Below are positions 2,574 through 51,700 of a DNA stretch of 64,000 nt, one piece after another (within the stretch, counting starts at the first letter, position 1; each line of letters starts with the position of its first letter). The position numbers and the translations under genes were made by a program. The notes under the pieces were generated by a model, which searched no databases, had not been told where the DNA came from, and saw only the letters and a program-made list of their open reading frames with translations. Source of the DNA: Candidatus Nomurabacteria bacterium GW2011_GWE1_32_28 (GTDB lineage: Bacteria; Patescibacteriota; Minisyncoccia; Phycocordibacterales; UBA9973); assembly GCA_000989515.1 (NCBI GenBank), contig LBOM01000005.1, forward strand, positions 2,709-66,708. Reading direction: 5' to 3'.

Positions 2574-2642
2574 AGTCAATTACGAATCAACAATTACGAA
2601 TTACGAATGAAAAAATTAGATTAGAAAATACGAAATAAAAAA

Positions 2643-3125
2643 ATGAAGAATTTTAAAAAAATTTCAGGCGGATTTATGATGGTAGAAGTAATAGTGGCAA
2701 TATCTATTATTGTTGTTTCTGTTTTGGCTGCAATGTCTGTTACCCAAAAATCTATTTTTGTTTCTCGTCAAGCACTTCATGTAAAAGAGGCTTCATTCTT
2801 ACTAGAAGAGGGTGCTGAGTCAATGCGGATTATTCGGGATAATTCATGGAATAATATTTCTACATTAAATATTGGTACTGATTATTATTTTACTTTTTCA
2901 GGTGGAACATGGACATTATCTAATATACCGTCTACTACTGGGATCTTTGTTAGAAAAGTAAATATATCAAATGTTAATCGTAATGTGTCTACCGATGATA
3001 TAGAAAGCCTGGGTATAGACGATCCTGGAACTAAATTAATTACTATTACTGTATCTTGGATTGATGGAGGAGAAACACTAAGTAAGACTTTATCTTTTTA
3101 TATTATGGATATTTTTTCAGAATAA
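2643..3125 (+). CDS. Pseudopilin / minor pilin
   Basis: GG|FMMVEVIVAISIIVV prepilin-type N-terminus with Glu at +5. Confidence 0.6.
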   Translation: MKNFKKISGGFMMVEVIVAISIIVVSVLAAMSVTQKSIFVSRQALHVKEASFLLEEGAESMRIIRDNSWNNISTLNIGTDYYFTFSGGTWTLSNIPSTTGIFVRKVNISNVNRNVSTDDIESLGIDDPGTKLITITVSWIDGGETLSKTLSFYIMDIFSE

Positions 3126-3131
3126 AATCTT

Positions 3132-3668
3132 ATGAAAAATTTTTATACAACAAAAAAAGTAAATAAATCATTCTGTTTTAAGAGTAAACGAAATAGCGGA
3201 TATGCTCTTTTGGAAACTATTTTTTATATTCTTCTTTTTGCTATTCTTTCTATTGCTGTGATTAACTCTATGATTACTATGACAAAAGCTTTTAGTGAAA
3301 CCACAATACAAGCAGAATTAATGCAGGGAGGTAGTACACTAGAAAGAATCTCTCGAGAAATAAGAGGTGCTTATAGTATAAATTCAATAACTTCAAACAG
3401 TTTAAAACTTAATACAAAAGATGCAGAAGGGGTAAATAAAACCATAGAATTTTCATTGCTTGATTCTAATATTAGGCTGTTGGAGAATGATATATTTATT
3501 GGAAATTTGAATACATCAAATATTGTAGTAAACAACATTGTCTTTACACAAATAAATACAACTAAAAGTACGGCGATAAAAATAGTTTTAACTGTCAAGT
3601 CTGGTCATGATTTACAAGATCGTACTGAAGATTTTTATAATACAGTAGTTCTTCGTGGTGATTATTAA
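3132..3668 (+). CDS. Pseudopilin / minor pilin
   Basis: SG|YALLETIFYILLF prepilin-like N-terminus with Glu at +5. Confidence 0.55.
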   Translation: MKNFYTTKKVNKSFCFKSKRNSGYALLETIFYILLFAILSIAVINSMITMTKAFSETTIQAELMQGGSTLERISREIRGAYSINSITSNSLKLNTKDAEGVNKTIEFSLLDSNIRLLENDIFIGNLNTSNIVVNNIVFTQINTTKSTAIKIVLTVKSGHDLQDRTEDFYNTVVLRGDY

Positions 3669-3695
3669 GCAAATCACGAATTATAAATTTTAAAA

Positions 3696-5456
3696 ATGCA
3701 AAAACAAAAACAAAAAAAAGTTAATAATCAGTCAGGTGCTGCAATGTTGGTGTCTATTGTTTTTTTTCTTTTTATTTCTCTTGCTATAATTTCTGGTCTT
3801 GTTTCACCATCTATTCGTGAATTTAAAAATGCTAATGTTGATTTAAGTTCAAAGAGATCATTTTTCTTAGCTGAATCAGGTATTGAAGATGCATTTTATA
3901 GAATATTAAAAAATAAAATGATAGGAACAAATGAAAATATTACGCTCGATTCTAATTCGACCACGACTACTATTACAACTCTGGAAGGTGGTGAAAAGCA
4001 GATTATGTCACTTGGTGATGTTTCAAATTATGAAAGACAAATAGGTTTAAAACTTTCTACTGGCAGTGGTGTTTCTTTCAATTATGGAGTACAGGTAGGA
4101 CAAGGTGGTATTAATTTAGTTGGTAGTGGTACCGTAAACGGAAATATATATGCAAATGGTCCAATTACTGGAGATGGTTCTGCTATCATCACTGGTACAG
4201 CAATTTCAGCTAATAGTCCTGCTCTAGCTGCAGACCAAGAAAATGGAGTTGGAATTCCAGACTACAATGTTACATTTGGAAATACAAATAGTACTCAAGA
4301 TATTGCTCAAAGTTTTAAAGTTGGAACAGAAAGTCCATTAAATAAAATTCAAATTTATGTTAAAAAAGTTGGTAATCCAAGTAATGCTACTGTTAAGATA
4401 GTCAATGATGTAAATGGAAATCCTGGTACTACAATATATGCTAGTGGAACACTTTCTGCTTCTGCTGTTACTACTTCATATGGATGGTTAAATATTACTT
4501 TCTCGTCTAACCCGTTACTTGATGTTGCCACGACTTATTGGTTAATTCTTGATGCAAGTACTTCTAGTAGTAAATATTATGTTATTGGTGCATCAAATAA
4601 TGGATATTTAAATGGTGTTGGAAAGATTGGTCAATCAAGTGGGATCTGGAACAATACAACACCAGAAGGACTTGATTATTATTTTGGTATTTACCTTGGT
4701 GGTTTTAATGGACTTATACAAGGTAATTCTCTTAGTCAGTGGAATCAGCTTCATGTTGGTACTATATCTGGTTCTGCTCAGGCTCATACTGTAAATTATA
4801 CGAACGCTACTGGAAATATATATTGTCAAACAGGGACTGGTAACAACAAGCCTTGTATCTTGCAGACTGATCCGACTTATATAGATTTTCCTGTTTCAGA
4901 AGCAAATATTTTACAATGGAAAACAGAAGCAGAGGCAGGTGGAGTTTATAATGGTAATTATTCGGTGGGTTGGGCTGGTGCAACCCTGGGTCCTAAAAAG
5001 ATAATTGGAAATTTGACAGTCTCAGGTGGAGGTATCTTAAATGTTACTGGTAGACTATGGGTTACAGGAGAGATTACTCTTAATGGTGGTGGAACGATTA
5101 AACTTGATTCAAGTTATGGCTCAAATGATGAGGTAATTATTTCTGATGATGAAGTTTCTATTTCTGGAGGAGGTCATGCAAGCGGATCTGGTACTGAAGG
5201 AAGTTATATTATGATGTTTTCTACTTCTACTGAGAGTGATGCAATGTTGATTTCTGGTGGAGCTGGTGCTGTTATTGCATACGCTCCTTTTGGCACTATC
5301 ACTATCTCTGGTGGTGCTTCTCTAAAAGAAGCTACAGGATATAGAATAATTGTCTCTGGTGGATCTAGTATTACTTATGAATCTGGTTTGACTAATAATA
5401 ATTTTTCTAGTGGACCTTCTGGTTCATGGGTAGTAGAAGAATGGATGGAGAAATAA
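3696..5456 (+). CDS. Large (586 aa) pilin-like / PilX-type minor pilin with Gly/Ser/Thr-rich beta-rich C-terminal region
   Basis: N-terminal SG|AAMLVSIVFFLFISLAII hydrophobic prepilin-like helix without Glu+5; last gene of the pilus cluster. Confidence 0.45.
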   Translation: MQKQKQKKVNNQSGAAMLVSIVFFLFISLAIISGLVSPSIREFKNANVDLSSKRSFFLAESGIEDAFYRILKNKMIGTNENITLDSNSTTTTITTLEGGEKQIMSLGDVSNYERQIGLKLSTGSGVSFNYGVQVGQGGINLVGSGTVNGNIYANGPITGDGSAIITGTAISANSPALAADQENGVGIPDYNVTFGNTNSTQDIAQSFKVGTESPLNKIQIYVKKVGNPSNATVKIVNDVNGNPGTTIYASGTLSASAVTTSYGWLNITFSSNPLLDVATTYWLILDASTSSSKYYVIGASNNGYLNGVGKIGQSSGIWNNTTPEGLDYYFGIYLGGFNGLIQGNSLSQWNQLHVGTISGSAQAHTVNYTNATGNIYCQTGTGNNKPCILQTDPTYIDFPVSEANILQWKTEAEAGGVYNGNYSVGWAGATLGPKKIIGNLTVSGGGILNVTGRLWVTGEITLNGGGTIKLDSSYGSNDEVIISDDEVSISGGGHASGSGTEGSYIMMFSTSTESDAMLISGGAGAVIAYAPFGTITISGGASLKEATGYRIIVSGGSSITYESGLTNNNFSSGPSGSWVVEEWMEK

Positions 5457-5484
5457 AATCTATATAATATGATACAATTGTTTT

Positions 5485-7313: not shown

Positions 7314-7701
7314 TTTCTTTTATTATTTTTTTTGTTACTTCTTCTATTTTTATTTCATTATATTTTTTTGTTGGCCAGTTTGAAAGTCCATCGTTAAAAT
7401 AACGTGGTATTAGATGTATATGAAAATGTGGTATATCTTTTCCACTTATTGCGAGCTGTACATAGTCGCAGTTGAAAGCTTTCTTTATAGCCAGCATTAG
7501 CTTCTTAGACAATTTGAATATTCCAGATATTGTATTATCATCAGCATCTTGCATCCAAATGATATGTTTTTTGGGGATTACTAAGATATGACCAAATGCT
7601 ACTGGTTCAATATCTACAAAAGATAAAAATTCTTCATCTTCATAAATCTTTTCACATGATATTTCTTTTTTAATTATTTTACAGAAGATACAATTTACCA
7701 T
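7306..7701 (-). CDS. HIT (histidine triad) family nucleotide hydrolase
   Basis: HxHxHxx motif HFHIHLIP, 131 aa, N-terminal Cys pair. Confidence 0.75.
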   Translation of the reverse strand: MVNCIFCKIIKKEISCEKIYEDEEFLSFVDIEPVAFGHILVIPKKHIIWMQDADDNTISGIFKLSKKLMLAIKKAFNCDYVQLAISGKDIPHFHIHLIPRYFNDGLSNWPTKKYNEIKIEEVTKKIIKEII

Positions 7702-7737
7702 GCGATTATTATATCAAATTATGTTAAAATTGCATTT

Positions 7738-9390
7738 ATGCAGAAATATTCTGAATTATTAAGGACAATTTTACAAAAAAGGGGAATAAAAGATCAAGCT
7801 TTAGCTGAAATTTTTTTAAATCCAGACTATGAAAGAGATTTACATGATCCATTTAAAATGAAAGATATGGAAAAAGCTTGTGTTAAACTTTTTGAGGTAA
7901 TAGAAAATAAAGAAAAAACTATTATTTATGCTGATTATGATTGTGACGGTATTCCTGGGGCAGTCGTTTTAGAGGATTTATTTAAAAAAATAGGTTATGA
8001 GAATTATAAGGTTTATATTCCTGGTAGAAATTCTGAAGGTTATGGTTTGAATTCTTCTGCCATAGAACAATTTGTCGAAAAAAAAGTGAAACTTTTAATT
8101 ACTATTGATCTTGGAATTACTGCAGTTTCTGAAATTGCTCAAGCAGAAGTACAAGGGATTGATGTCATTGTGACAGATCATCATTTACCACACACTACTT
8201 TGCCTCGCGCGTATGCCATATTAAATCCAAAAGTAGATGATTATCCAGAAAAAACATTGTGTGGAGCTGGAGTTGTTTTTAAATTAGTACAAGGATTTGT
8301 AAAAAAGTATGGTGAATTTTATAAGATAAATACTGGTTGGGAAAAATGGTTATTAGATATGGTTGGTATTGCTACACTTTCAGACCTCGTTCCTCTTTTA
8401 GGAGAGAATAGAGCTTTATCATATTTTGGAATGAAGGTTCTTAAAAAATCACCTCGTGTTGGTTTACAAAAACTTCTTTCTAAAATGAAAATTGACCAGA
8501 AATATTTAAATGAAGATGATGTTGGTTTTATGATAGCACCAAGACTAAATGCAGCATCACGAATGGATGATCCGATGAGAGCTTACGAAATTCTTTCTAC
8601 GGAGGATGAAGTTAATGCTGGTATTCTCGCAGATCATTTATCAAAAATTAATGATGATAGAAAAACAATGGTTGCGAGCATAATGCGTGAAGTAAATAAG
8701 AAATTTGAAAAACGCGAGATTAGAGAAGTTATAGTTGTAGGTAATCCTAAATGGCGCGTCGGTGTCCTTGGACTTGTGGCTAGTAAGATTGTAGATCAAT
8801 ACAAAAGACCTGTTTTTGTTTGGGGTAAAGATGAAAATGATTTAATAAAAGGATCTTGTAGGTCAGATGGTTCAGTATCTCTTGTTGAACTTATGACAGA
8901 AGCTAATGAATCTTTCTTGGAATTTGGTGGACATGAATTTGCTGGTGGTTTTACTGTTGATAATGAAAAGATTCACTCTTTAGAGGATGTTCTTTCTTTG
9001 TCTTTTGTTAAGGTTGCTCGTGATAAGATAGAAGAAAAATTAATCTATGATGTTGAATCTGATTTGAGTATTGTAAACATGAAAAGCTGGCGTGAACTAG
9101 AAAAACTTGCTCCATTTGGTTTTGATAATCCAAAACCTATTTTTTTATTTAAAAATATAAATATAGAAAATATAAAAAAGTTTGGAAAGAATGGTTCTCT
9201 AGAACATTTAGAAATTACTTTTTCTAATATTGGTAAAAATAAGATTAAAGCAATTTCTTTTTTTTCAGATAATGATTCTTTTAAAAAGACCATCAATGAA
9301 GGTGACAAAGCTGATTTATTGGCAACCTTTGATCTTTCTAGGTTTAGAGGAAGAGAAGAGCTAAGATTAAGAATAATTGATATAATATAA
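7738..9390 (+). CDS. recJ: Single-stranded-DNA-specific exonuclease RecJ (DHH/DHHA1)
   Basis: DHH motif VTDHHLP, DHHA1 GGHxxAGG motif EFGGHEFAGGF, 550 aa. Confidence 0.8.
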   Translation: MQKYSELLRTILQKRGIKDQALAEIFLNPDYERDLHDPFKMKDMEKACVKLFEVIENKEKTIIYADYDCDGIPGAVVLEDLFKKIGYENYKVYIPGRNSEGYGLNSSAIEQFVEKKVKLLITIDLGITAVSEIAQAEVQGIDVIVTDHHLPHTTLPRAYAILNPKVDDYPEKTLCGAGVVFKLVQGFVKKYGEFYKINTGWEKWLLDMVGIATLSDLVPLLGENRALSYFGMKVLKKSPRVGLQKLLSKMKIDQKYLNEDDVGFMIAPRLNAASRMDDPMRAYEILSTEDEVNAGILADHLSKINDDRKTMVASIMREVNKKFEKREIREVIVVGNPKWRVGVLGLVASKIVDQYKRPVFVWGKDENDLIKGSCRSDGSVSLVELMTEANESFLEFGGHEFAGGFTVDNEKIHSLEDVLSLSFVKVARDKIEEKLIYDVESDLSIVNMKSWRELEKLAPFGFDNPKPIFLFKNINIENIKKFGKNGSLEHLEITFSNIGKNKIKAISFFSDNDSFKKTINEGDKADLLATFDLSRFRGREELRLRIIDII

Positions 9391-9393: not shown

Positions 9394-9894
9394 ATGAAAA
9401 AAGATAAAATAATAATTTATACAGATGGTGCTGCGAGAGGAAACCCAGGTAAGGCTGGATGGGCAGCTATTATAATCAATTACGAATTACGAATTACGAA
9501 TCCAAAAATAATAGAGCTTGGTGGTTCATCTAGTTATGCCACAAATAACCAAATGGAGCTTTCTGGGCCAATAGGAGCATTAAAATATCTACATTTAAAT
9601 TCCGCTAGGCAAGGCCTAGCGCATGATGTAGAAATTTTTTCTGATTCAAAATACGTTATATTGGGTATTACAGAATGGATTTTTAATTGGCAGAAGAATA
9701 ATTGGAGAAATGCAGCCAAAAAATCAGTTTTGAATAAAGAGCTTTGGGTGGAGCTTTATGAGCTTTCTAGAGAATTTAAGATTAAATGGACTTATGTAGA
9801 AGGTCATAGTGGTGATAAATATAATGAAAGAGCAGATGAAATAGCTACAAATTTTGCTGATGGCAATAAAATAGAATTAAAAAACGAAAGATAA
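9394..9894 (+). CDS. rnhA: Ribonuclease HI
   Basis: IYTDGAARGNPGKAGWAAI N-terminus, TNNQMEL and HSGDKYNERADEIA catalytic regions; carries an in-frame (AATTACGA)3 repeat at 9477-9503. Confidence 0.8.
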   Translation: MKKDKIIIYTDGAARGNPGKAGWAAIIINYELRITNPKIIELGGSSSYATNNQMELSGPIGALKYLHLNSARQGLAHDVEIFSDSKYVILGITEWIFNWQKNNWRNAAKKSVLNKELWVELYELSREFKIKWTYVEGHSGDKYNERADEIATNFADGNKIELKNER

Positions 9895-20716: not shown

Positions 20717-20739
20717 TACGATATAAGTATTTTAATAAA

Positions 20740-31292: not shown

Positions 31293-31294
31293 TT

Positions 31295-31402: not shown

Positions 31403-31409
31403 AATAAAC

Positions 31410-31610: not shown

Positions 31611-31645
31611 AATTAAATATTAAAGTTAAATTAAAAAACAAAAAA

Positions 31646-35513: not shown

Positions 35514-37775
35514 TTAATTGACTATGTTCTCTCCACTCTCTGTATGTTCTATTTTCTCCAAAACTTCTCTTGGTTTTGCACCATCACCAGCACTTATGAC
35601 TCCACGTTCTTGTAATGTATCCATCAGTCGTGCTGCACGAGCATATCCGAGTTTTAATTTTCTTTGAAGATATGACGTTGAAGCTTTTCCTGCTTCTATC
35701 ACACATTGTCTTGCTTCTTCATACATTTCATCTTCATCATCGTCTTTATCATCCAATGTACTTTCAAATATGCTTTTATCTGCAGAGATTGAACCACTAG
35801 TTAGTGATATTTCATCGGTTAATTCATCTTTGTATGCATCTACTAAATATTTAACAACTTTTTTAACTTCTGTTTCTGAAATAAATGCACTCTGTAGACG
35901 TTCTGGCTGAGCTTCTCCTGAGGAATATAGCATATCACCAGCTCCTAAGAGTTTCTCTGCCCCACCTGCATCGAGGATAGTACGCGAATCTATTTGTGAA
36001 GATACTTTGAGTGCCACGCGAGCAGGAATATTTGCTTTGATAAGTCCAGTAATGACATTTACTTCAGGGCGTTGCGTGGACAATATCAAATGTATTCCGA
36101 CAGCTCTAGACATTTGAGCTAGGCGGACGATTGCAGATTCTAGTTCTCTAGGGTAAGAGCTCATGATATCTGCTAATTCGTCTATGATGATGACTATATA
36201 AGGTAGGCGATCAGCATCTACTTCTGTTTTTGTTCCATCTTCGCCTGTCTTTGTTTTCTTTGGATTTTTACCAAATACATTAGTGTGGTAAGACTCTATA
36301 TCTCTCACAGATTCTGCTTCGAGTATATCATAACGGCGATCCATTTCTTTTGCTGCCCATTTTAATGCTAATATTGTCTTTTTTGCTTCAGTTATGACAG
36401 GGGTAAGTAGGTGTGGAATGTTGTTATAAAGAGTTAGCTCTACGCGTTTTGGATCTATCAAGATAAGTTTTAAATCATCTGGTCCATTTCTATATAATAG
36501 GGAAGTGATAATAGAATGTATTGTCACAGATTTTCCAGAGCCTGTAGTACCTGCGACAAGTGCATGTGGCATTTTTGCTAAGTTTCCAAACATAGCTTTT
36601 CCTGATATTCCTCGTCCTAGAGCTATGGTGAGAGGTTTTGGAGAATTTTGGAACTTACTATCTGAGAGAAGTGTTGCGAGGCCTACTATTGATTTTGATT
36701 TATTTGGGATCTCAATACCTACGAGAGATTTACCTGGGATAGGAGCTTCTATACGGATAGGGTGTGCAGCTAGAGAAAGTGCGAGGTCGTTTTGTAGACC
36801 GACTATGCGTGAGAGTTTTACACCTTCGGCTGGCTTCAATGCATAACGTGTGACGGTAGGTCCGACTGTTATCTCATCCATTTCGACTTCAATGCCGAAG
36901 TTTGCAAGTGTGCGTTTGATTATATTTGCATTTGCTTTTATGTCTCCAGTATTTGGCTTACCTTGATCTTCTTCGAGCAATGAGAGTGGGGGAGGGACAT
37001 AAGTAGAGACGAGGCCACCTTTTCTTTTTCTAATAGGCATCTCTTCTTCCTCTTCTTGTCCGTGTTTTATATCTAGAGCTTTTTTAATTTTCTCTACAGT
37101 AGAACTTTGTTCTTCTACTTCCTTTGTTGCTTTTTCTGAGGCAGGATTTTTGTCTATCATGTTTTCTTCTTTTTCGTTCAATGTGGAGACTGGTTGTTCT
37201 TTTTTTCTTGAAATCGATGCCCATAAATTTTTGAAAGTTAAAATGATGTTTAGCTTCACGTCAAACATCACTACGATAGATATCAATAGTAATGCACCGA
37301 GGAATATTATACTGGCATAGACATCAAATAAAGATACGAGGGGAGTCGAAAGAATTCTTCCCAAGAACCCTCCTCTATGTTCGAGAGAGACGACGTCTAT
37401 GATGCCGAGACTAGAGAGCAAAAACATGGTTCCACTCAATGCACGAGTGAGTCCGACATTTGGAGTTTCTGATTTCAAAAATGATGAGCCGAGTAATATA
37501 AAAAGAAGAGGGAGAAGTATGTATCCTATACCGAGTAAATAATTTAAAATTTCATAAATAAATTGACCAGCTACTCCAGCAATATCAAATATAGACATCA
37601 AAAGAAAAAGCGCTAAAACAAAAAATAAGATTGCCCAGATGCTGTGTATCGTTTCTGTTTTTAATTTGCTCATGGAATAAGAATTATTGTTGGAAGATTC
37701 TCTGTTGTTTTTCTGTTTATTATTTTTTGCCATATAGTACATTTTATCACTTTTTTTCATTTTAGTTAAATCCAC
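35514..37775 (-). CDS. ftsK: DNA translocase FtsK/SpoIIIE
   Basis: N-terminal 4 to 5 TM segments, linker, motor domain with Walker A GTTGSGKS and Walker B DELAD, C-terminal gamma wHTH. Confidence 0.85.
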   Translation of the reverse strand: MDLTKMKKSDKMYYMAKNNKQKNNRESSNNNSYSMSKLKTETIHSIWAILFFVLALFLLMSIFDIAGVAGQFIYEILNYLLGIGYILLPLLFILLGSSFLKSETPNVGLTRALSGTMFLLSSLGIIDVVSLEHRGGFLGRILSTPLVSLFDVYASIIFLGALLLISIVVMFDVKLNIILTFKNLWASISRKKEQPVSTLNEKEENMIDKNPASEKATKEVEEQSSTVEKIKKALDIKHGQEEEEEMPIRKRKGGLVSTYVPPPLSLLEEDQGKPNTGDIKANANIIKRTLANFGIEVEMDEITVGPTVTRYALKPAEGVKLSRIVGLQNDLALSLAAHPIRIEAPIPGKSLVGIEIPNKSKSIVGLATLLSDSKFQNSPKPLTIALGRGISGKAMFGNLAKMPHALVAGTTGSGKSVTIHSIITSLLYRNGPDDLKLILIDPKRVELTLYNNIPHLLTPVITEAKKTILALKWAAKEMDRRYDILEAESVRDIESYHTNVFGKNPKKTKTGEDGTKTEVDADRLPYIVIIIDELADIMSSYPRELESAIVRLAQMSRAVGIHLILSTQRPEVNVITGLIKANIPARVALKVSSQIDSRTILDAGGAEKLLGAGDMLYSSGEAQPERLQSAFISETEVKKVVKYLVDAYKDELTDEISLTSGSISADKSIFESTLDDKDDDEDEMYEEARQCVIEAGKASTSYLQRKLKLGYARAARLMDTLQERGVISAGDGAKPREVLEKIEHTESGENIVN

Positions 37776-37829
37776 TTATTAAGGATTTTTATAGGAACAA
37801 TTTTTAAAAACTATATAGATAAAATCATA

Positions 37830-38134
37830 AATTAAAAGTCTCAAATTATCAAAAAGATTTTAGTAAGAATCAATTTTTATAAAGCAATCTATCTGGCGAA
37901 GCTTCGGGAGCGTTCTGCTCGTCACTCAAGAAAATAATAAATGGAATACCATTTTTATTTTCTAAGCTCCTGCGCAAGGCTTTCTAAAAACTATTCTTAC
38001 TAAAATCTTAAATTACTAAAGTCTTGAATTGTTGCTTTTAAAAAGCATTGCGCAGGCTGTCGAGCTGAGCATAGCAATTTTCTAGCAAGAAAATATGTGC
38101 GGTTTTTAAAAGTAATAATTTGAGACTTTTAATT
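37830..38134. mobile_element. MITE-like element / long inverted-repeat structure (about 305 bp) with 20-bp perfect terminal inverted repeats
   Basis: AATTAAAAGTCTCAAATTAT at 37830-37849 equals the reverse complement of 38115-38134; second IR pair GATTTTAGTAAGAAT 37856-37870 / 37994-38008; GC-rich internal patches. Confidence 0.4.
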
Positions 38135-38140
38135 TATCTT

Positions 38141-38174
38141 AATTCGTAATTCGTAATTGTTAATTCGTAATTGA
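38141..38174. repeat. (AATTCGTA)n octamer repeat array
   Basis: aattcgtaattcgtaattgttaattcgtaattgattcc. Confidence 0.8.
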
Positions 38175-38207
38175 TTCCCCCTTGCATTTTTCTCTGTCCT
38201 ATATATA

Positions 38208-39107
38208 ATGGACAACATGATCTTAGGTGAAAATAAAAACCTAAAAGACACCTCTAAGGATTCTTTTAAAGACACCTTTTCTGTTCCTATCTCAACATCT
38301 AATAAACAAGAGCAATCTGTCTCTTTGGTTTCTTCTTGGCAAAATTATTCTGGTTCATATACTAAAACAAATAAGTTGGTTACCGCTTTATATATGGTAA
38401 CGGACATAATGGAAAAAGGAGAACCTATTCGTTTAAAATTAAGAACTCTAGGAGTAGAAATTCTATCAGACATTGCATTTCTAGAAAAAGGGACTTTTGG
38501 TAATATAAAGGACAAGGTTATTTCAATTTTGTCCTTTTTAAATATTGCTTCTGATTTAGGAATGATATCAGGAATGAACAGTACTATTTTAAAGAAAGAG
38601 TTTACTGGACTTAAGCAATCAATAGAAGAATTTACAAATAAAAACAATCTTTGGTTTGAAGAATTTATGAGTGATAATTCAAAAGAAGAATTAAATGATT
38701 CTGTTTCAAGTCCTTTAGTTTCTAAGATAGATTTTTCTATCGGACACTCTAAATTAAATGATAAAAAAGATGTGTCTTTTGCTAAAGGACAAAGTGTGAG
38801 AATAGGAGTTCAAAAAGGAAGTACATTACTCAAGGCCTTGAGTAATGTTAAGGGAAATTCCATTAACAAAAATGCTAGTTCAGAGGGCTTTGAAATGCTT
38901 AAAAAAGACAGAAGAGAATCAATAATAAAAATTACAAAAAGTATACCAAATGGGGTGAGTATAAAGGACATTGTTACAAGATTAGATAACACTGGAAAAA
39001 AGTATGGAGAGAAGACAATACAAAGAGAATTGGTATCTATGGTAAAGGACAATGTCCTTAAGAAAACTGGAGAGAAGAGATGGAGTAAATACTCAATTAA
39101 CAATTAG
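38208..39107 (+). CDS. Hypothetical protein (299 aa) with possible C-terminal winged-helix; bracketed by octamer repeat arrays
   Basis: No catalytic motifs; C-terminal segment IKDIVTRLDNTGKKYGEKTIQRELVSMVKDNVLKKTGEKRWSKYSI resembles a wHTH. Confidence 0.35.
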   Translation: MDNMILGENKNLKDTSKDSFKDTFSVPISTSNKQEQSVSLVSSWQNYSGSYTKTNKLVTALYMVTDIMEKGEPIRLKLRTLGVEILSDIAFLEKGTFGNIKDKVISILSFLNIASDLGMISGMNSTILKKEFTGLKQSIEEFTNKNNLWFEEFMSDNSKEELNDSVSSPLVSKIDFSIGHSKLNDKKDVSFAKGQSVRIGVQKGSTLLKALSNVKGNSINKNASSEGFEMLKKDRRESIIKITKSIPNGVSIKDIVTRLDNTGKKYGEKTIQRELVSMVKDNVLKKTGEKRWSKYSINN

Positions 39108-39311
39108 AAATTACGAATTACGAATTGGATTCAATTGACCTTTAAAAGGGCCCGCCTTCATAGTAATGAAAGTGGGCCCTTAATTTTTGTAATTCGTAAT
39201 TGATTAGTCTTCTTTTGAGCCTTTAAATTCGTAATTCATAATTGTTAATTCGTAATTGATTAGTCTTCTTTTGAGCCTTTAAATTCGTAATTCGTAATTC
39301 GTAATTTTTAA
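39102..39311. repeat. Octamer repeat arrays plus two copies of a 44-bp unit (TTCGTAATTGATTAGTCTTCTTTTGAGCCTTTAAATTCGTAATT) and a GGGCCC-centred hairpin
   Basis: The 44-bp unit is directly repeated at 39190-39233 and 39251-39294; hairpin aagggcccgcc...gtgggccctt at 39143-39182. Confidence 0.75.
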
Positions 39312-39854
39312 TTGATTCTATAGTTGCTTTTTACCCAAAAATATGCGAAAATAGAGTTGTGGATATTTGGCCTCAAAAGCTATTGTTCTTTTATTAGACG
39401 AGTTATCCACATAATATATTGCTCTATCTTATAGCTATATATTATACTATCTAAAGTGTTCAGAGATTGCGCTTTTATTGAGTGTGTTCTGTGTTCACAA
39501 TTTATATTTGTTTTTGTTCATAATTTCGTCGAAAAAATTTTGAATAAAGGCAAGCCCAACAAAGGTCAAAAATTTGTTTGGGTAAAAGAAAGGTCATTGA
39601 AAACTGAATAAAAAATATCTTATAAAAAGTAAATTTTTTGTAAGAGATTTTGTTCAAGTTTTTAATCTCAATTGAAAAATAAAAAATATTAAAAACATTT
39701 TTTATCATCAATTGATGTTTAAAGAAATCTGTTCATTATTAAATTTTTTCGTCGCATTATTAATTTTTATAAGTTATAGACGAAGAAAAAATAATGATAG
39801 AAAAAATACGCTTTTGGTTTTGTCGAAACTAACTTAATGGCGTAGAAAAAAATT

Positions 39855-42800
39855 ATGAGTAAATTATTAAAATCAAAATTTTTTCTTGGAGTAGCAGTGT
39901 TCGCACTTGCATTCGTTGTCACAGCTTCAGCTATGGCAGCAGATGGTGTTATCACAAAAACTCTTAAGAAGGGAATGAAAGATGTTCAAGTTCAATATCT
40001 TCAACAGACTCTTAACGAAAAAGGTTTTACAGTATCATCAACAGGTGCTGGTTCAGCTGGTTCTGAAACAACATACTTTGGTCCTGCTACTGTAAATGCA
40101 GTAAAAGCTTTTCAAGCTGCTAAGAGTTTAGTAGCTGATGGTATATTTGGTGCAAAGTCACGTGCAGCTTTAGATAGTTCATCTACAGTTGGTGATCTTT
40201 GTCCAAATGGCATGACAATGGCAAGTAACTGTACTACTCTACCAAGTAGTACAACAGAAACTCTTTGTCCAAATGGCATGACATTAGCAAGTAACTGTTC
40301 AGTTGCTCCAGCTGGAAATTCAACTTCAACTGGTCCTATCGCAGTTTCTCTTGCTTATACAAATCCAGCTCCTGGAACATTAGTTACAGGTCAAGCAACA
40401 GCTGACCTTGCACACTTTAATTTCACAGGAACAGGAACAGTCACAGCTCTTACATTACAAAGAATCGGAGTTTCCGCTGACACAACACCTTCAAATATCT
40501 ATCTTTTTGATGGAGCAACACGTCTTACAGACGCAGCTTCTGTCACAAATACTGGTTTAGTTACTTTTGCAAACCCAGCTGGTTTGTTTGTAGGTGGCAA
40601 GACCATTTCTGTAAAGTCAGATATCTTGACAAATACATCAGGTCAAACTCTTGGAATGAAATTAGTATCTTACACAGTAGATGGAGTAGCTACAGCTGCT
40701 AACATTTCAGGAAATATACACAATATTGCTTCTGCAACATTGGCTGCAGTTTCTGCAGGTACAGTTACACCATCAGGTGCAACTATCAACCCAGCTGCTG
40801 CTGTAACACTATGGCAATCAACATTAACAGTCTCACAAAGAGATGTGTTGATGAAAAGATTAGCTCTACGTCAAGTAGGTTCAGCTCCAGCTTCAGCTTT
40901 CCAAAACTTTAAGCTCTATGTAAATGGAGTACAAGTAGGAACAGCTACAGGTCTTGATATCAACGGATATGTCACATTTGATTTAACTTCTGCTCCAGCT
41001 ACATTAGTAGCAGGATCAAGAGTTGTTAGAGTAGATGCAGATGTTGTATCTGGTGCTTCACGCACAGTTCAACTTTCTCTACGTCAAGCAGCAGATGTTG
41101 ATTTCGTAGATTCAAGCTTCGGTGTAAACATTACCCCAACTTCAACTCCATGGACAGGATCAGCAAGTACAATTTCTGGTACTTCAGGTGGATCATTGAC
41201 AGTTGAAAAGGATGTTACATCTCCTTCAACAAACTTAACTTTGTCTGGAACTGATGTAAATCTTGGAACATTCAAATTAACAGCTTATGGTGAATCAATC
41301 AAGGTTGAAACACTTACAGCTGGATTTACCTATACAGATACTTCAGCTGGTGGTAACACAGCTACATTGAGAAACGGACGTCTTTTGATTAACGGTGTTC
41401 AATATGGCTCTACAGCTACAATATTAGCTGCTGGAACTTCATTTACAACAAACTACACAGTAGTTCCTGGTACACCAGTACTAGTAGAAGTACATGCAGA
41501 TGTTTATGACAATGATGGTACTCTAGCAATCGAAGCTGCAGATACAATTGTTGCAACACTTAAGACAGGTTCTTCAAATGCTACACGTGTAGATTCAATG
41601 GGTTCGTTCAATGTTCCTAGTGCAGATGTCTCAGGAAATACATTGACAGTAGCTACAACATCTATCACATTATCAAAGAATGGAACATATGCTAACCAAA
41701 CAACAGTTCTTCCAGCAACTAATTTCAAAATTGGTTCATGGAATTTGACTGGTAGTTCAGTAGAAGATGTTCTTTTGACAACATTGTCATTTGATGCTGA
41801 TGAGGTAGTTGGTACAGAATTTGACGAAGGTGATATGACAAATATGTATGTAGTAGTAAAGAGTGGTTCAACAACAGTTGCTCAACCTTCACCACTAGGT
41901 ACAGTGTCAGCAGCCGACAACAATTTCTCAATCAATTACACTCTTCCTAAAAATGGAAGTGTAACAATTGAATTGTTTGCTAATCTTTCTGATGATGGTC
42001 TTGATTCTGCTATTGATGCAGCTGATTCATTCAAAACAGATCTTACTATAACAGGTACTTCTCTTGTTTCTGGTCAATCTGTCACAGCTACTTCAGCTGA
42101 TACAGATGGTCAAACAATTGCTTATGGTTCAGCTTCAATCACTGTCACAAAAGATGCTTCAACACCAGTTGCAGCTATCGTTTATGACAACCAAGAAGTA
42201 ACAACAGCAGCATTGAAATTTGCAGCTGTCACTTCAGGTTACAACGTAACAGATCTTACATTTACAGTTGATTCTACAACAGTAGCTAATACAGTCAATC
42301 TTTATGATGGTTCTACTTTGTTAGCATCACAAGCAGGTGGAGTATCTCCATTGACTTTCTCAGGATTGGCATGGAACATTCCAGCTAATACAAATAAAGT
42401 CCTTACTGTTAAATTAGTATTAGGTGAAGTTTCTGATTCAGGTGCTGGTAGTACAAACGGTGCTGCATTGTTAACAACATTGACATCCTTTACTGCAACT
42501 TCAACATCAACAGGTGTTTCAGCAGCGGGTACTATCACAAGTGGAGCAGGAAATGTAGCATACGTTTATGCAGCAGTTCCTTCTCTTGAAAATGTATCTT
42601 TGTCTTCTACTAATGTTACTGCAGGTACAAATGTATTTGCTAAATACAAAGTTACTTCAAATGGAGGTCCTACAGCATGGGAAAAAACAATCTTTACTAT
42701 TGCTCGTGCAACAACAGGTGCAGCAGTTGCAAATACCTTTACTCTTTGGGATGAAAACAATACCCAAGTAGCAGGTACAGCAACTCTAACCGATGCAGGT

Positions 42801-45774: not shown

Positions 45775-45785
45775 TTTTACTTTAT

Positions 45786-45900
45786 TATCTTGTCGGGTGT
45801 TGGACACCCGACAAGATAAGGAGTTTTTATAAAACACTCATATTTTACGGGTGTTTTATTTTGTGTTATGAGATAATAGTTATGGTTGTATTTATAATTT
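45786..45900. repeat. About 115-bp repeat unit B containing the extended palindrome CTTGTCGGGTGTTGGACACCCGACAAG
   Basis: Direct repeat of unit A. Confidence 0.75.
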
Positions 45901-45962: not shown

Positions 45963-46622
45963 ATGAGAAAAAATCCTCTTGTAACTAATCAGTATTATCA
46001 TATTTATAATAGAGGAGTCGATAAAAGAGATATTTTTATGAATAAATCTGATTTAGATAGATTTATTTTGAGTGTAAAGGAATTTAATATAGTTAAACCT
46101 ATAGGTAGTATTAAAGAGCGATTAATAGAATTAAAAGCCCCGTCGGGTGTTGGACACCCGACGGGGCTTGTTTCTATTGTCTGTTATTGTTTTAATCCAA
46201 ATCATTTTCATTTTATTTTAAAACAAGAAGTAGATGGTGGAATTTCAGAATTTTTTAAGCGTTTACTTGGTGGATATACAAATTATTTTAATTTAATACA
46301 CAAGAGAAATGGGGCATTATTTCAAGGAAGATTTAAGTCTAATTTGGTTGACGATGAAGAATATTTTTTAAAAATTCGTCCTTATGTGCATTTAAATTAT
46401 TTAGTACATGATATTCCAAAAGAAAAAAAGTATTTAATATCATCAAGCAAGAAAGAATATGATACTAATAAATTTACTATTGTTTCAAAAAAAGAAGCAA
46501 AAGAACTTTTGGATTTTTATAATGGTAATCTAAATTATAAAAAAGAATGCTTAGATGTAATTTCTTTTATTCGAGAAGAAAGAGGATTAACTTCTTTGTT
46601 TGAAGAAGAATTATTACCATAA
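45963..46622 (+). CDS. HuH-family Y1 (IS200-like / REP-associated tyrosine transposase, RAYT-like) protein; possibly degenerate
   Basis: YYHIYNRGVDKRDIF N-terminal strand, HuH motif NPNHFHFIL, C-terminal GALFQGRFKS...DDEEY...YVHLNYLVHD resembling RAYT LWQRGFYDH...YIHFNPV; a 31-bp perfect palindrome (46137-46167) lies in frame inside the gene. Confidence 0.5.
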   Translation: MRKNPLVTNQYYHIYNRGVDKRDIFMNKSDLDRFILSVKEFNIVKPIGSIKERLIELKAPSGVGHPTGLVSIVCYCFNPNHFHFILKQEVDGGISEFFKRLLGGYTNYFNLIHKRNGALFQGRFKSNLVDDEEYFLKIRPYVHLNYLVHDIPKEKKYLISSSKKEYDTNKFTIVSKKEAKELLDFYNGNLNYKKECLDVISFIREERGLTSLFEEELLP

Positions 46623-48060: not shown

Positions 48061-51039
48061 TTGCTAAATAATTTAAAAGAAAATGATGAACAGGAAATAG
48101 GGGAGCCTTGTATTTCTCCACCAGAACTTTCTTTACTTCATAAAGTTCAGGGTGTTTTGTTTGCTGTAGCTGACCCGACTGCAGGAGTAGTGAAAGTCGG
48201 ATTAATTAGTTCTTATAATGCAGGTTCTTATATCGCTGATGGTGTGCATAATGCTGGATTAGCAGTAGGAAACGGGATACATGATACTAGCTTAAAAATA
48301 AATAATATGGTTTCAGGATTGTTGGCAAATGCTATTGGAAGTTTGCCTGATGCTGGTGTTATAGCTGCTGTTCCTTTTGGTGTATTAGATTCTGAAAATA
48401 TAGAAGCTGGGGCGGAGGAATTGCCTCCGCCTGCTTCGTCTGTAGAGAAAGAGACCGTCCTTCCACAAGAGATACCTGAGATAAAAGATGAAGTAACTAT
48501 TCCTACTGAACCTGAACCTATTTTAGTTGAGCCAGTTCCTGAAAAAGAAGAAGTTGTGGATGTTGTACCAGAGAAGATTGATCCTATCGTATCTAATACC
48601 ACATATTATGGTGGAGGTGGCGGAAGTAGTACACCTACAGATATAGTTGCTCCAGTTATTACAATTCTTGGAAATAATCCTGAGACAATTACAAAAGATT
48701 CTATTTATCTTGATGCAGGTGCGACAGCTTTGGACGATGTTGATGGTGTGATAGAAGTAGTTGTCACTGGTGTTGTGGATATTAGTGTCGTTGGTGTTTA
48801 TATTATTACTTATACTGCGACAGATCTTTCTAATAATATTGCGACAATGATACGTACTATCAACGTTGTTTTGCCTCCACCCCCACCACTTGCTACTTTT
48901 ACAATTGACTCTGATACTACATTAGTTGCTGGTGAATATAATTATGATAATTTAATTATTACAAATAATGCGGTACTTACCTTAGATAGCAATCGTGATT
49001 CACTAGACCCATTTAAGGGTGTAAAAATAAATGCAGTAAATATAACTATTGAAAATGGTTCATCTATTTCTGCTCAAAGTAAAGGATACGCGAATGGTCC
49101 AGGAACTTATGCAGAGAATAGTCCTGGTGCGAGTTATGGTGGAACAGGTGATAAAAATATTTCAACATCGATATATGGTAGTGCGACCAAGCCTATTGAT
49201 TTAGGTAGTGGGGGATATAATTATTTTCGTGATGGTGGAGCTATTCGTCTTGTCGTCACAGATACTCTCATAAATAATGGTATTGTTTCTTCGAATGGAG
49301 ATAGTACATCGAGTGGTGGAAGTATTTATGTAACAACAAAAAATTTGACTGGAAGTGGTTCATTTAGTGCAAATGGTGGAGGATTATACTCTACTTCCGT
49401 TATTCACGGTTCTGGTAGTGGAGGTAGAATTGCTATATATTATGAAGTTAATTCTTTTTCTGGAATAGTAGAAGCAAAAGGTGGATGTGGAAGTTATGAT
49501 GGATATTCTAGAACTTGTGCGATGGATGGAACAGTTGGATATTTTGATACAATAAATAATGATCTTTCTGTATATAATTCATGGCAATTTTTAAAAGTAG
49601 ATAGTCCATTTAATTATAATAAAATTATTTTAACAAATGGTTCGACAATAAGATCAGAAAAAGAAGTTAATATAACAGCAGACGATCTTCTTTTAGATAA
49701 GATTTCTAATTTTACATTAAACGAAGATCAGATTATAAATATTTCGTCAATTAGGTTAAATGAAAATTCTAGATTAACACTTTCTGGAAGTGAAATGATA
49801 ACTGCTGACAATTTAATTATTAGTGGCAATTCTGATGTCACTATAGTTATAGAGAAAATATTTTCTTTAACTATTCCGAACATTAATATTGAAAGTGGAT
49901 CTTCTATTTCAGCTGATACAAAAGGGTATTTTGGTGGTCCGGGTGCTCCTTTGGTATACAGGGCTGGTGCAAGCTATGGAGGAGCAGGCGAGGGAAGCGA
50001 TGATGCATTAACTTATGGTTCAGTTTTGGAACCTGTAGATTTTGGAAGTGGTGGAAATGGTGATCTACGTGGTGGTGGAGCTATTCGTCTTGTCGTCACA
50101 GATACTTTCATAAACAATGGTATTGTTTCTTCAAATGGAAACAGCACATCGAGTGGTGGAAGTATATATATAACAGTAAAGAATTTATCTGGAAGTGGAA
50201 AATTTAGTGCAAACGGAGGAGGGCTTTATTCTTCTTCTGTTATATTTGGTTCTGGTGGAGGTGGTAGAAATGCAATTTATTATGAGAGTAATCTTTTTAC
50301 TGGAACAGTGGAAGCAAAAGGTGGATGTGGAAGTTATGATGGATATTCTAGAGTCTGTGCAAAAGATGGAACAGTAAAAATGATTGATACTACAAAGAGT
50401 TCAGTAAAACAAATTACGACATTTGATTTTATGAGTTTGACACCAAACGTTGTTGGAATGATTGATGAAGTTAATCATGCTGTTTCTCTAACTGTTCCTT
50501 TTGGTACTGCTGTGACAGCTCTCGTCTCAACTATTACAATTTCAGAAAAAGCGATAATTAGTCCAGATACTAATGTAGCTCAAGATTTTACAAATGCTGT
50601 TACTTACACAGTGACTGCAGAGAATGGTTCTACTCAGGATTATATTGTCACAGTTTTGGTCGCTTCTGATCCAAATCCTCTACCTGATGATACGATACCT
50701 TCAATATTAAGCTCTTCATTAAATGGAATTGCTAGTGATGTGGCGACCAATCCTGTCGTAGACCTTGTTTCTATTGCTTTTATTGCAAATGAAAATGTAG
50801 ATTGGGTTTCTATAAAAATTGAGAAAGAAGACGATGAAACTGTTTACAAATATTTTTATCCAGGGATTGATTGTGATGGGCAGGATGCTTGTACTAAATC
50901 ATGGAATGGTTTATTAGCGGGAGATTCAATAGCACCAATCGGTGTATATAAGATAAGGGTTCGTATTCGAGATCTGATTAGCCTAGAAGAATATGATTTT
51001 TCCCATTTATATAAAATTACAGTAGATACTTCTCTATAA
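48061..51039 (+). CDS. Large surface adhesin-like protein with bacterial Ig-like (DUF5011-type) domain and tandemly duplicated beta-rich about 330-aa domains; same frame as the upstream lipase ORF, separated only by one TAG
   Basis: VITILGNNPETITKDSIYLDAGATALDDVDGVIEVVVTG...YIITYTATDLSNN Ig-like motif; internal duplication GGAIRLVVTDT(L/F)INNGIVSSNG...EAKGGCGSYDGYSR; no signal peptide, TTG start. Confidence 0.5.
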   Translation: MLNNLKENDEQEIGEPCISPPELSLLHKVQGVLFAVADPTAGVVKVGLISSYNAGSYIADGVHNAGLAVGNGIHDTSLKINNMVSGLLANAIGSLPDAGVIAAVPFGVLDSENIEAGAEELPPPASSVEKETVLPQEIPEIKDEVTIPTEPEPILVEPVPEKEEVVDVVPEKIDPIVSNTTYYGGGGGSSTPTDIVAPVITILGNNPETITKDSIYLDAGATALDDVDGVIEVVVTGVVDISVVGVYIITYTATDLSNNIATMIRTINVVLPPPPPLATFTIDSDTTLVAGEYNYDNLIITNNAVLTLDSNRDSLDPFKGVKINAVNITIENGSSISAQSKGYANGPGTYAENSPGASYGGTGDKNISTSIYGSATKPIDLGSGGYNYFRDGGAIRLVVTDTLINNGIVSSNGDSTSSGGSIYVTTKNLTGSGSFSANGGGLYSTSVIHGSGSGGRIAIYYEVNSFSGIVEAKGGCGSYDGYSRTCAMDGTVGYFDTINNDLSVYNSWQFLKVDSPFNYNKIILTNGSTIRSEKEVNITADDLLLDKISNFTLNEDQIINISSIRLNENSRLTLSGSEMITADNLIISGNSDVTIVIEKIFSLTIPNINIESGSSISADTKGYFGGPGAPLVYRAGASYGGAGEGSDDALTYGSVLEPVDFGSGGNGDLRGGGAIRLVVTDTFINNGIVSSNGNSTSSGGSIYITVKNLSGSGKFSANGGGLYSSSVIFGSGGGGRNAIYYESNLFTGTVEAKGGCGSYDGYSRVCAKDGTVKMIDTTKSSVKQITTFDFMSLTPNVVGMIDEVNHAVSLTVPFGTAVTALVSTITISEKAIISPDTNVAQDFTNAVTYTVTAENGSTQDYIVTVLVASDPNPLPDDTIPSILSSSLNGIASDVATNPVVDLVSIAFIANENVDWVSIKIEKEDDETVYKYFYPGIDCDGQDACTKSWNGLLAGDSIAPIGVYKIRVRIRDLISLEEYDFSHLYKITVDTSL

Positions 51040-51043
51040 TTTT

Positions 51044-51064
51044 CCACAAGTTCAACTTGTGGGG
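51044..51064. repeat. Palindromic repeat CCACAAGTTCAACTTGTGGGG (family copy 3), 5 bp after the adhesin stop
   Basis: Direct reading. Confidence 0.8.
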
Positions 51065-51091
51065 GAAGGGGGAGATTGAGTTGTTTGAAGG

Positions 51092-51370
51092 TTGTTATTA
51101 TTATTAGGAGTAGTATTATTAGTAAGGAATAATTCTTTAACAAATCTTAGAGGTATTGTTATGGAACAAAATTGTTGTGTTGCTTATTTGGGTCAATGTG
51201 ACTTTAAAATTCTTTCTCGTATAGACGGTCATTATAAAGAATTTTTTTATGTTTGTATGAACTGTGGAAGAGAAAAGATTTTAGATAGAATTTCTCTTAA
51301 TCATAAAAATCATAAGTATTCAGAAGGAGATCAAATAAAAATGGAAGAGCTATCTTTACAGGGCAAGTAG
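51092..51370 (+). CDS. Small Cys-rich (zinc-ribbon-like) protein; probable true start at M 51161
   Basis: MEQNCCVAYLGQCDF...YVCMNCGREKIL gives a CC-x6-C ... C-x2-C pattern. Confidence 0.3.
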   Translation: MLLLLGVVLLVRNNSLTNLRGIVMEQNCCVAYLGQCDFKILSRIDGHYKEFFYVCMNCGREKILDRISLNHKNHKYSEGDQIKMEELSLQGK

Positions 51371-51405
51371 ATTATTTATAAATAATCTACTTGCCTCTTT
51401 TTTTA
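51363..51405 (+). terminator. Rho-independent terminator
   Basis: GCAAGTAGATTATTTATAAATAATCTACTTGC perfect hairpin followed by CTCTTTTTTT. Confidence 0.75.
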
Positions 51406-51636
51406 TGTTATAATAAAATTATGGTGAAACATTTTTTAAAGACTTTATCTATTTTTATTTTTATGATAATTTTAGGACTCATAGGAGTTTATCTAGTAGG
51501 TTATTTTGATAATAATGAAGAATCAGCTAATGTTTTAAATAATCAAGCGGAAGTAGCAATATAAGGATATAAAATATATTGCTTTAGTTTAAAAGTTGTG
51601 ATATTATACAAATACCGCAAAGAAAATAGGCGTAAT

Positions 51637-51700
51637 CAATTAACAATTAAGAATTACGAGTTAACAATTTGAAATTCGTAATTAAAAATTCGTAATTGAA
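51637..51700. repeat. Octamer and related AT-rich repeat cluster (CAATTAACAATT, GAATTACGAG, AATTCGTAATT x2) upstream of rplJ
   Basis: gtaatcaattaacaattaagaattacgagttaacaatttgaaattcgtaattaaaaattcgtaattgaatg. Confidence 0.75.

Follow-up and report, generated by a model that had tools for sequence, protein, structure and literature searches.

Introduction

Bacterial heptanucleotide repeats have been known since 1990 and still have no established origin or function. Here, short imperfect tandem arrays of the unit AATTACG are described in a 64-kb stretch of DNA (the window, meaning the whole stretch that was analysed) from Candidatus Nomurabacteria GW2011_GWE1_32_28, a member of the Paceibacterota within the candidate phyla radiation (CPR). 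The arrays are probably a heptanucleotide simple-sequence repeat (SSR) of the same kind as the short tandemly repeated repetitive (STRR) sequences and the long SSRs of other bacteria. The finding is a new unit in a new lineage, within a known class that lacks an explanation.

Among the systems already described, TAACTGA heptamer repeats occur across phyla near start codons, and their function is not known (MacGregor, 2015; PMC4679880). They are found in marine Beggiatoaceae and also in Cyanobacteria and Bacteroidetes and, like AATTACG, consist of a 7-nt unit in 2-6 copies at dispersed intergenic sites (PMC4679880). Both repeats often abut start codons that lack a Shine-Dalgarno (SD) sequence, including those of ribosomal-protein operons, and both occasionally lie in open reading frames (ORFs). 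In both cases the cross-phylum spread suggests horizontal transfer by no known mechanism, and the functions are not known. The two differ in that TAACTGA carries stop codons on its forward strand and is placed mostly forward upstream of start codons, whereas AATTACG has a stop-free strand, occurs in both orientations, often forms inverted hairpin pairs after stop codons, has a sharply phased 5′ boundary and is hosted here by a CPR bacterium.

In many bacteria it is the heptamers that are over-represented among SSR lengths, for which slippage of the polymerase has been put forward as an explanation (Mrazek, 2007, as quoted in PMC4679880 and PMC4692102). The STRR sequences of Calothrix and Nostoc and the long SSRs of Mrazek et al. 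(2007), in which heptamers dominate, as these later papers summarise them, share with AATTACG the tandem intergenic heptamer, the many loci and the variable copy number (PMC4692102; PMC4679880). Arrays of AATTACG are themselves abundant in the Nostocales; the carrier in question has a small genome of 31% GC. The classical STRR units CCCCAGT, TTGGTCA and CAACAGT are different sequences from AATTACG.

The GGGAATC and GGGGAYT repeats of Xanthomonas and Nostoc vary between species and include inverted pairs (Rehm et al., 2015; PMC4692102). Like them, AATTACG occupies the same intergenic sites in related species with varied length and sequence, keeps part of its unit conserved, and has some inverted pairs able to make stem-loops. 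GGGAATC differs in being G-rich, with quadruplexes proposed for it, whereas AATTACG is unable to form a G-quadruplex.

The repeat unit and its period

Within the window, which has a GC content of about 31%, the word AATTACGA occurs 28 times against 2.7 ± 1.7 expected, and none of 100 dinucleotide-preserving shuffles reached 28 copies. The starts of consecutive copies are spaced by 7 bases, with a one-base overlap, and Tandem Repeats Finder likewise gives a period of 7 with the consensus AATTACG. An independent test, the spacing of AATT words, counted 46 pairs and 21 triples at a distance of 7, compared with 6-13 pairs and 0-1 triples at all remaining distances between 4 and 12. The unit is therefore a heptamer, and an octamer is excluded. 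An earlier note on this DNA had proposed a dispersed family of tandem octamers; the family is real and far above chance, but on all three measures its period is 7 and not 8. The companion words listed there, CAATTAAC and TAATTGAT, do belong to the family, as degenerate units (AATTAAC and ATCAATT).

The profile over 51 units reads A1, A2 and T3 at 100%, T4 at 94%, A5 at 84%, C6 at 53% and G7 at 55%. AATTA is near-invariant while positions 6 and 7 drift, as in an SSR that decays around a constrained core. The window holds about 13 arrays of 2 to 5 units each at seven loci, and six of the seven loci are intergenic though 88.5% of the window is genic (binomial P = 1.5e-5). The arrays sit in non-coding spacers and often take up everything between one gene's stop codon and the start codon that follows. 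The base before the array is C, mostly as TC, in 10 of 10 window arrays (checked by eye), and no further AATTACG arrays were found in the 10 kb past each window end (L409 and L410; here and below, numbers with L denote the sequences that were compared). Head-to-tail 7-nt copies, multiple and mostly intergenic loci, variation of copy number and unit at orthologous sites, and an excess of period 7 are all found, and these are the features that define the SSR class.

In such a class, slipped-strand mispairing and unequal exchange would resize the arrays, with whole-unit variants, point variants and the tandem duplication of array-flanked segments as higher-order units of 55-56 bp as their signatures, and the arrays would persist where they are harmless. 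The unit contains no ATG, GTG or TTG on either strand, and the AATTACG strand is also free of stop codons; because of this, the arrays would be tolerated in the spacers of an SD-less genome. An SD-like motif precedes 8 of 54 genes, and many genes have a TATAAT-like box 6-10 nt before the start codon (for instance upstream of 5485, 7701 on the minus strand, 9394, 13045, 22175 and 38217). This suggests widespread leaderless or SD-independent translation, and the host is probably largely SD-less and rich in leaderless mRNAs. With few SD sequences, the sequence and length of the spacers would therefore be only loosely constrained.

Arrays in the window

The arrays and the elements associated with them are collected in Table 1. 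Most of the coordinates in the earlier note were correct, but two arrays had been overlooked (3672-3692 and 31351-31368), and there is no array at 30213-30230. The latter site, in the tatD-rpsF spacer, is really a single inverted pair, TATTACGA..TCGTAATA, and an array in front of rpsF is therefore unsupported. Similarly, the array at 2578-2608, which had been placed before a pseudopilin gene, follows a pilin-like gene; its end lies 34 nt from the next start codon.

Table 1. Positions of heptamer arrays and associated elements in the window
Feature	Position	Strand	Context
Array AATTACG AATCAAC AATTACG AATTACG AAT	2578-2608	+	4 nt past the stop codon of the pilin-like gene 2106-2573
Degenerate array AATCACG AATTATA AATTTTA	3672-3692	+	Fills the 27-nt gap separating ORFs 3132-3668 and 3696-5456
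Perfect (AATTACG)3 + AAT	9478-9501	+	In frame within rnhA (9394-9894)
Five units	31296-31330	+	Opens the ssb-rpsR spacer, 3 nt past the stop codon of ssb
Non-heptamer core AAATACAAAAGAAGGGAGAATC, ~20-22 nt	31331-31350	+	Part of the ~55-nt composite unit
Units AATTATG AATTAAC AATTA(C)	31351-31369	+	Cut by the following palindrome
20-nt perfect GC-rich palindrome CCTGCCTACCGGTAGGCAGG	31370-31389		Exactly within one heptamer
CG AATTACG AATTAAT	31390-31405	+	Ends 4 nt ahead of the rpsR start codon at 31410
Five units, AATTCGT on the + strand	38141-38172	-	Directly upstream of a TTGCAT-16 nt-TATAAT promoter-like pair
Five units	39095-39126	+	Run over the end of the 299-aa gene (stop codon 39105-39107) and form the 5′ arm of a long hairpin
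GC hairpin GGGCCC..GGGCCC, then TTAATTTTT	39148-39188	+	Intrinsic-terminator-like; enclosed by inverted arrays
Three antisense arrays	39189-39317	-	Within a 56-bp higher-order unit x2.3; the distal array pairs with 39095-39126
AATTAAC AATTAAG AATTACG	51638-51658	+	Hairpin ~105-165 nt before rplJ, 5′ arm
Five antisense units	51666-51697	-	3′ arm of the hairpin upstream of rplJ
Second heptamer family (CTAANGC)4.4	57602-57634	+	23S-5S spacer

The ssb-rpsR spacer (31296-31405) is wholly an array region, broken by the non-heptamer core and the palindrome. The core AAATACAAAAGAAGGGAGAATC recurs reverse-complemented at 38173-38195 and in the related locus L124, and the composite unit of about 55 nt is dispersed to three places. 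The promoter-like pair downstream of the array at 38141-38172 would serve a conserved gene for a 299-aa protein (38208/38217-39107). At 31339-31365 an SD-like AAGGGAG stands 9 nt ahead of a mini-ORF of two codons, ATG AAT TAA; this mini-ORF is partly built from heptamer units and may be due to chance.

Deleting the palindrome at 31370-31389 rejoins the interrupted unit as AATTA|CG. Elhai and colleagues reportedly described, in 2008, small dispersed repeats embedded in tandem heptamers of Nostoc punctiforme (cited in PMC3116915). In common with those repeats, the window palindrome is a short hairpin element precisely inside a heptamer array, as are the small hairpin inserts within AATTACG arrays at the Nostoc loci L006, L022, L111 and L113; it differs from them in having another sequence and just one in-array copy here. 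The 20-nt perfect palindrome, written CCTGCCTRCCGGYAGGCAGG, is also dispersed among relatives (L129 at 9007, L150 at 3245, L153 at 12471 and 16259, L176 at 16218 and L191 at 8071), and in L129 and L150 it appears in frame within tatD.

Predicted hairpins at gene ends

Inverted arrays would make hairpins at gene ends, and two sites in the window are predicted to do so. The segment 39088-39320 folds at -66.9 kcal/mol, compared with -35.8 ± 3.9 for shuffles (z = -8.0), with the sense array pairing with the distal antisense array so that the GC hairpin and its T-run are enclosed. At 51630-51710 the two arms form a hairpin with z = -3.6, and the ssb-rpsR spacer has weak structure except for its palindrome. 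Rfam searches at the gathering threshold on the window, together with E-value scans of 37700-39900 and 51000-51850, gave just rRNA and chance hairpin matches, and covariation was not found. The anatomy suggests that the sole function hinted at is structural, with inverted pairs forming long hairpins that enclose or replace a terminator at gene ends.

Two further small families of palindromes resemble terminators, and each has two nearly identical members in the window: AAAGGTAGCAAACTCTGC... and ...GTCGGGTGT/ACACCCGAC... (20737-20776 and 31640-31685; 45785-45819 and 46135-46169).

Variation among related genomes

A scan of metagenomes with SSB as the query gave 80 relative loci with SSB identities of 79-94%, and 76 of these had a readable ssb-rpsR spacer. 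The spacer is hypervariable among relatives, and in many it is just 2-15 nt long. Arrays of the AATTACG type occupy it in 12 of the 80 loci, always in one orientation and reaching from the stop codon to the ATG, with about 4-6 units of differing variants. The remaining spacers include inverted TAGGCNN/NNGCCTA heptamers, long perfect palindromes, an element resembling a miniature inverted-repeat transposable element (MITE) with CCCGTACGAAAT termini, and an insert with a GIY-YIG-like ORF. The spacer is an insertion hot spot among relatives.

The MITE-like element is 80-137 nt long with the termini CCCGTACGAAAT...ATTTCGTACGGG, and other spacers have inserts of 180-330 nt (in L144 encoding the GIY-YIG-like peptide) or perfect palindromes of 45-50 nt. 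MITE-like or other inserts were seen in L125, L133, L136, L138, L153, L154, L155, L185, L195 and L201; in L144, L158 and L164; and in L131, L172, L176 and L193. The CTAANGC family (equivalent to TAANGCC and TAGGCNN) stands in relatives at sites where the window has AATTACG spacers, partly as inverted arrays (the ssb-rpsR spacers of L123, L141 and L191, and L124 at 7640-7665).

L124 and L162 have also retained arrays 3′ of the 299-aa gene, though not in the same number of copies. The higher-order unit at this site is 55 bp repeated three times in L124 versus 56 bp repeated 2.3 times in the window, and in L162 the inverted arrays themselves are the hairpin after the stop codon. Upstream of the same gene, TAANGCC heptamers stand in L124 in place of the AATTCGT units of the window. 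From these comparisons and those of the ssb-rpsR spacer it follows that the presence of a locus can be conserved, that copy number shifts by whole units and that the unit is replaceable. Among exact arrays in relatives, period 7 is the commonest, with periods 8 and 9 close behind. In L124 a hairpin element of about 50 nt is also inserted between the -35 and -10 hexamers of the promoter of the 299-aa gene (7700-7770, corresponding to window 38173-38216), and it brings a new TTGCAA at a 17-nt spacing from TATAAT.

The array within rnhA

The one intragenic array, (AATTACG)3 at 9478-9498, encodes NYELRIT, a 7-residue insertion in a beta-hairpin of RNase H. In an alignment of 25 close homologues, nine have the insertion (as NYELRIT, NYELKIT, NYELGIT or NYQSGIT), 14 are without it and two have another insertion of 13 residues in the same loop; E. 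coli RNase HI is shorter there. The 13-residue insertions, in P0028 and P0086, read YPHPASPLLKGRK and YPYPTSPLVRGRS. At the DNA level, L408 has an identical perfect (AATTACG)3, L407 a decayed copy and L406 none, and the array has exactly three units in three species. Some codons of the insert are rare in the host genome (TAC 12%, CGA 7%, ACG 5%), which argues that the peptide came from the repeat and not the repeat from the peptide. A protein search with (NYELRIT)6 matched only hypothetical ORFs of 31-74 aa, mostly from Nostocales, which look like gene calls over intergenic arrays rather than genuine proteins.

Arrays in other phyla and in viruses

Arrays of (AATTACG)3 were found at no fewer than 120 loci in a collection with one genome per species. 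Among the 80 loci listed, assigned by record title, about 33 belong to Cyanobacteria (mostly Nostocales), 23 to Bacteroidota, 7 to Acidobacteriota, 4 each to Chloroflexota and Planctomycetota and 3 to Ignavibacteriota, and finished chromosomes are among them. Exact arrays of at least three units at the AATTACG loci of other phyla number 204 at period 7 versus at most 15 at any other period, and viral loci have 141 versus at most 19. Fifty other heptamer units occur alongside AATTACG in the loci of other phyla, and the carriers are therefore heptamer-rich genomes in general.

The arrays of other phyla and viruses are overwhelmingly intergenic. Those inside ORFs are all in the stop-free orientation (9 of 9 in genomes and 14 of 14 in viral contigs), which is expected because CGTAATT yields TAA in all three frames. 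The intergenic arrays have no strong strand bias (31:25 and 28:15), and an inverted partner lies within 150 nt in about 12-16% of arrays. In the IMG/VR collection, three tandem units were found at 64 loci for AATTACG, 22 for AATTAGC, 5 for AATATCG, 5 for ATTAACG and 107 for the published heptamer TAACTGA. The lack of start codons is not a sufficient cause for the abundance of the unit, as AATATCG and ATTAACG likewise have no start codon on either strand yet are rare. AATTACG as a repeat was not found in the searchable literature.

Slippage or active copying

Several observations weigh against reading the arrays simply as an SSR resized by slippage. Slippage leaves unexplained the seeding of one unit at new sites and in unrelated lineages, and seven loci of one genome share one unit. 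AATTACG arrays are present in at least seven phyla, CPR included. In viral contigs (AATTACG)3 is 3-13 times commoner than composition-matched heptamers (64 versus 22, 5 and 5), where four control heptamers were scanned, in the viral collection alone. The viral contig L232 (55% GC) has 11 AATTACG arrays in 9.9 kb, many of them inverted pairs at gene junctions, and L219 (64% GC) has several long ones, and base composition is therefore no explanation for the unit at 55-64% GC. In a neighbour-joining tree of SSB and S18 the array-bearing taxa are scattered, and their sisters carry unrelated elements at the site. The public copies of this genome, L121 and L122, match the window at 100% identity over 20 kb and therefore hold no information on copy-number variation. 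Between the rnhA inserts of the window and L408, 7 of 7 codons are identical, three of them rare, compared with 49% of conserved residues sharing a codon elsewhere (p ~0.007).

The 5′ boundary of the arrays belongs with these observations. It was analysed in exact arrays of at least 27 nt outside the window, a cut-off that removes seed bias, and ends continued by a degenerate unit were excluded. The start phases were 51, 3, 4, 1, 3, 1 and 18 (p = 4e-35), that is, the arrays begin with AATTACG, and the phase-6 starts can be put down to a G that happens to stand upstream. At the 3′ end the phases are diffuse, apart from a mild peak at ...AATTA, and TAACTGA arrays in an identical analysis have no sharp phase. 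An ORF of at least 90 codons ends no more than 40 nt ahead of the array in 31% of genomic and 59% of viral cases, and in most of these the distance is no more than 6 nt. Overlap with the stop codon was considered as the sole cause of the phase and rejected, since just 14 arrays share AA with an upstream TAA. These boundary regularities appear to be new and are beyond what slippage accounts for.

Such observations could be accommodated if an AATTACG array were a discrete element, either micro-mobile or made by templated polar addition, that is actively copied or synthesised, spreads within genomes, lineages and phages, and is modified by slippage later. We regard this as unlikely, while giving it some weight. 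In its favour are the single unit shared by Cyanobacteria, Bacteroidota, Acidobacteriota, Chloroflexota, Planctomycetota, Ignavibacteriota and CPR, its density in GC-rich viral contigs and its excess over composition-matched heptamers. The sharp 5′ phase with a diffuse 3′ end, unlike TAACTGA, also fits, as do the patchy presence at one hypervariable spacer that also takes palindromes, MITE-like elements and a GIY-YIG ORF, the composite unit of about 55 nt at three places, and the rnhA insertion with unchanged rare codons in two species. However, neither a target-site duplication nor a fixed element length was found, and the arrays have no transposase or reverse transcriptase linked to them, the sole nearby Y1 transposase being flanked by a different palindrome. 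Moreover, the arrays vary by whole units like ordinary SSRs, heptamer-rich genomes hold dozens of units so that any one unit recurs across taxa, and the comparison with control heptamers covered four of them in one viral collection. It is only a tentative suggestion, then, that the arrays are discrete polar DNA elements whose 5′ end is defined and whose 3′ end varies, which a specific mechanism makes or recognises and which have passed horizontally between at least seven bacterial phyla and their viruses. If this were true, a polar element would mark many gene junctions in GC-rich phage genomes, and the minimal CPR carrier would sharply narrow the candidate enzymes and binding factors.

Palindromes of the REP/REPIN-RAYT or MITE type were also considered and set aside: the heptamer is not an imperfect palindrome of 20-40 nt, and the palindrome of the Y1_Tnp gene, GGGCGGAGGAATTGCCTCCGCC, is a separate family. 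Nothing links this nearby Y1 transposase to the heptamers. The palindrome occurs at 48410-48431 of the window, inside a large surface-protein ORF, and two copies flank the 211-aa Y1_Tnp gene. The gene (1961-2596) and its flanking copies (1905-1935 and 2604-2632) are on L409, some 8 kb before the window begins. The gene matches its Pfam family at 33 bits, above the cut-off, with a weak match to a model for REP-associated tyrosine transposases, and its setting resembles that of REP/RAYT systems, here in a CPR genome.

Possible regulatory roles

Returning to the SSR reading, two roles in gene expression have to be considered alongside it. In one, the arrays would be cis-acting RNA or DNA sites for a conserved factor (S1 or a cold-shock-type protein on SD-less leaders, or RNase III on stems) that tunes translation, processing or termination, a role that we consider improbable. 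Arrays in relatives reach the rpsR start codon without an SD sequence in a host that is largely SD-less, and many arrays elsewhere begin within 6 nt of the upstream stop codon. The AATTA core is conserved while positions 6 and 7 vary, the unit is retained in GC-rich genomes, and in hairpins the 21 bp of three units correspond to roughly two turns of double-stranded RNA. TAACTGA repeats have been suggested to act in translation (PMC4679880), and Nostoc reporters with other heptamers showed modest effects that hint at regulation, with no partner identified (bioRxiv 10.1101/2022.06.06.494920). However, intergenic arrays occur in both orientations without strong bias, most relatives lack an array at the spacer, some ssb-rpsR gaps being 2-15 nt, and other heptamer units replace AATTACG at the same place. 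Furthermore, there is no covariation and no Rfam family, and no candidate factor is specific to array-bearing genomes.

The earlier note had offered a regulator binding array as one explanation. Arrays outside the window lie between convergent gene pairs in 29 cases versus 12 divergent ones, and this, together with the two orientations and the relatives without arrays at the same spacers, speaks against it. Its candidate regulator, the gene at 38208-39107, is probably not specific to arrays: it belongs to a family of about 2000 Paceibacterota proteins with members also on contigs of the L125 and L148 samples, in which the 20-kb stretches around ssb are free of AATTACG arrays. One source annotates a winged helix for the family, and the 299-aa protein has no informative match in Pfam, NCBIfam or PDB. 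A sigma-70 promoter inside the unit was rejected as well, as the best hexamers match at 3 of 6 positions (by eye).

In the other role, the arrays would be contingency-locus repeats in which gain or loss of units switches adjacent genes by phase variation. In favour of this, seven is not divisible by three, related species differ in copy number, and one array adjoins pilus genes. Phase-variable or regulator-bound heptad repeats are known from the HMW1A promoter, the neuO heptanucleotide and the TTTTGAT repeats of the ctxAB promoter, which share with AATTACG a 7-nt tandem unit and a change of copy number by slippage. These differ in standing at one promoter or 5′ coding site of a surface or virulence gene where copy number sets expression, whereas AATTACG is dispersed, mostly 3′ or intercistronic, in both orientations and among housekeeping neighbours. 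None of the arrays lies in a 5′ coding region or between -35 and -10 hexamers, and the neighbours are mostly housekeeping genes (ssb-rpsR, rplJ, rnhA). The rnhA array is fixed at three units in three species, where a change of one unit would destroy the enzyme, and the array on the pilin side comes after the stop codon of that gene. Phase variation is accordingly very improbable here. The suggestion of a slipped-strand element thus holds as far as an SSR whose copy number and variants differ at orthologous loci, but not for switching, given arrays that come after stop codons, in housekeeping intercistronic spacers or upstream of a -35 hexamer. The exclusion of a clustered regularly interspaced short palindromic repeat (CRISPR) array was right: the 7-nt units are contiguous with no spacers, and cas genes were not found in Pfam scans of the window ORFs.

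Other features of the window

In the window, the 23S rRNA (54589-57407) and 5S rRNA (58796-58901) genes are 1.39 kb apart, with an ORF for a LAGLIDADG endonuclease (57868-58359) between them; a 16S rRNA gene and tRNA genes are absent. The isoleucyl-tRNA synthetase (17234-20716, 1160 aa) has a His_Phos_1 histidine-phosphatase domain inserted at residues 502-661.

Significance

The carrier of these arrays has the very small gene repertoire of a CPR bacterium, and this limits the candidate enzymes or binding partners for a heptamer repeat. The orthologous series of ssb-rpsR spacers records a quick turnover among arrays, palindromes and MITE-like inserts at one site. In addition, the arrays offer testable regularities in their sharp 5′ phase, their position just past stop codons, the inverted pairs at gene ends and the in-frame insertion of triple units. 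If the arrays are actively generated or specifically bound, the question of why the unit should be seven nucleotides long would be opened to experiment; if they are not, they would be neutral intergenic filler.

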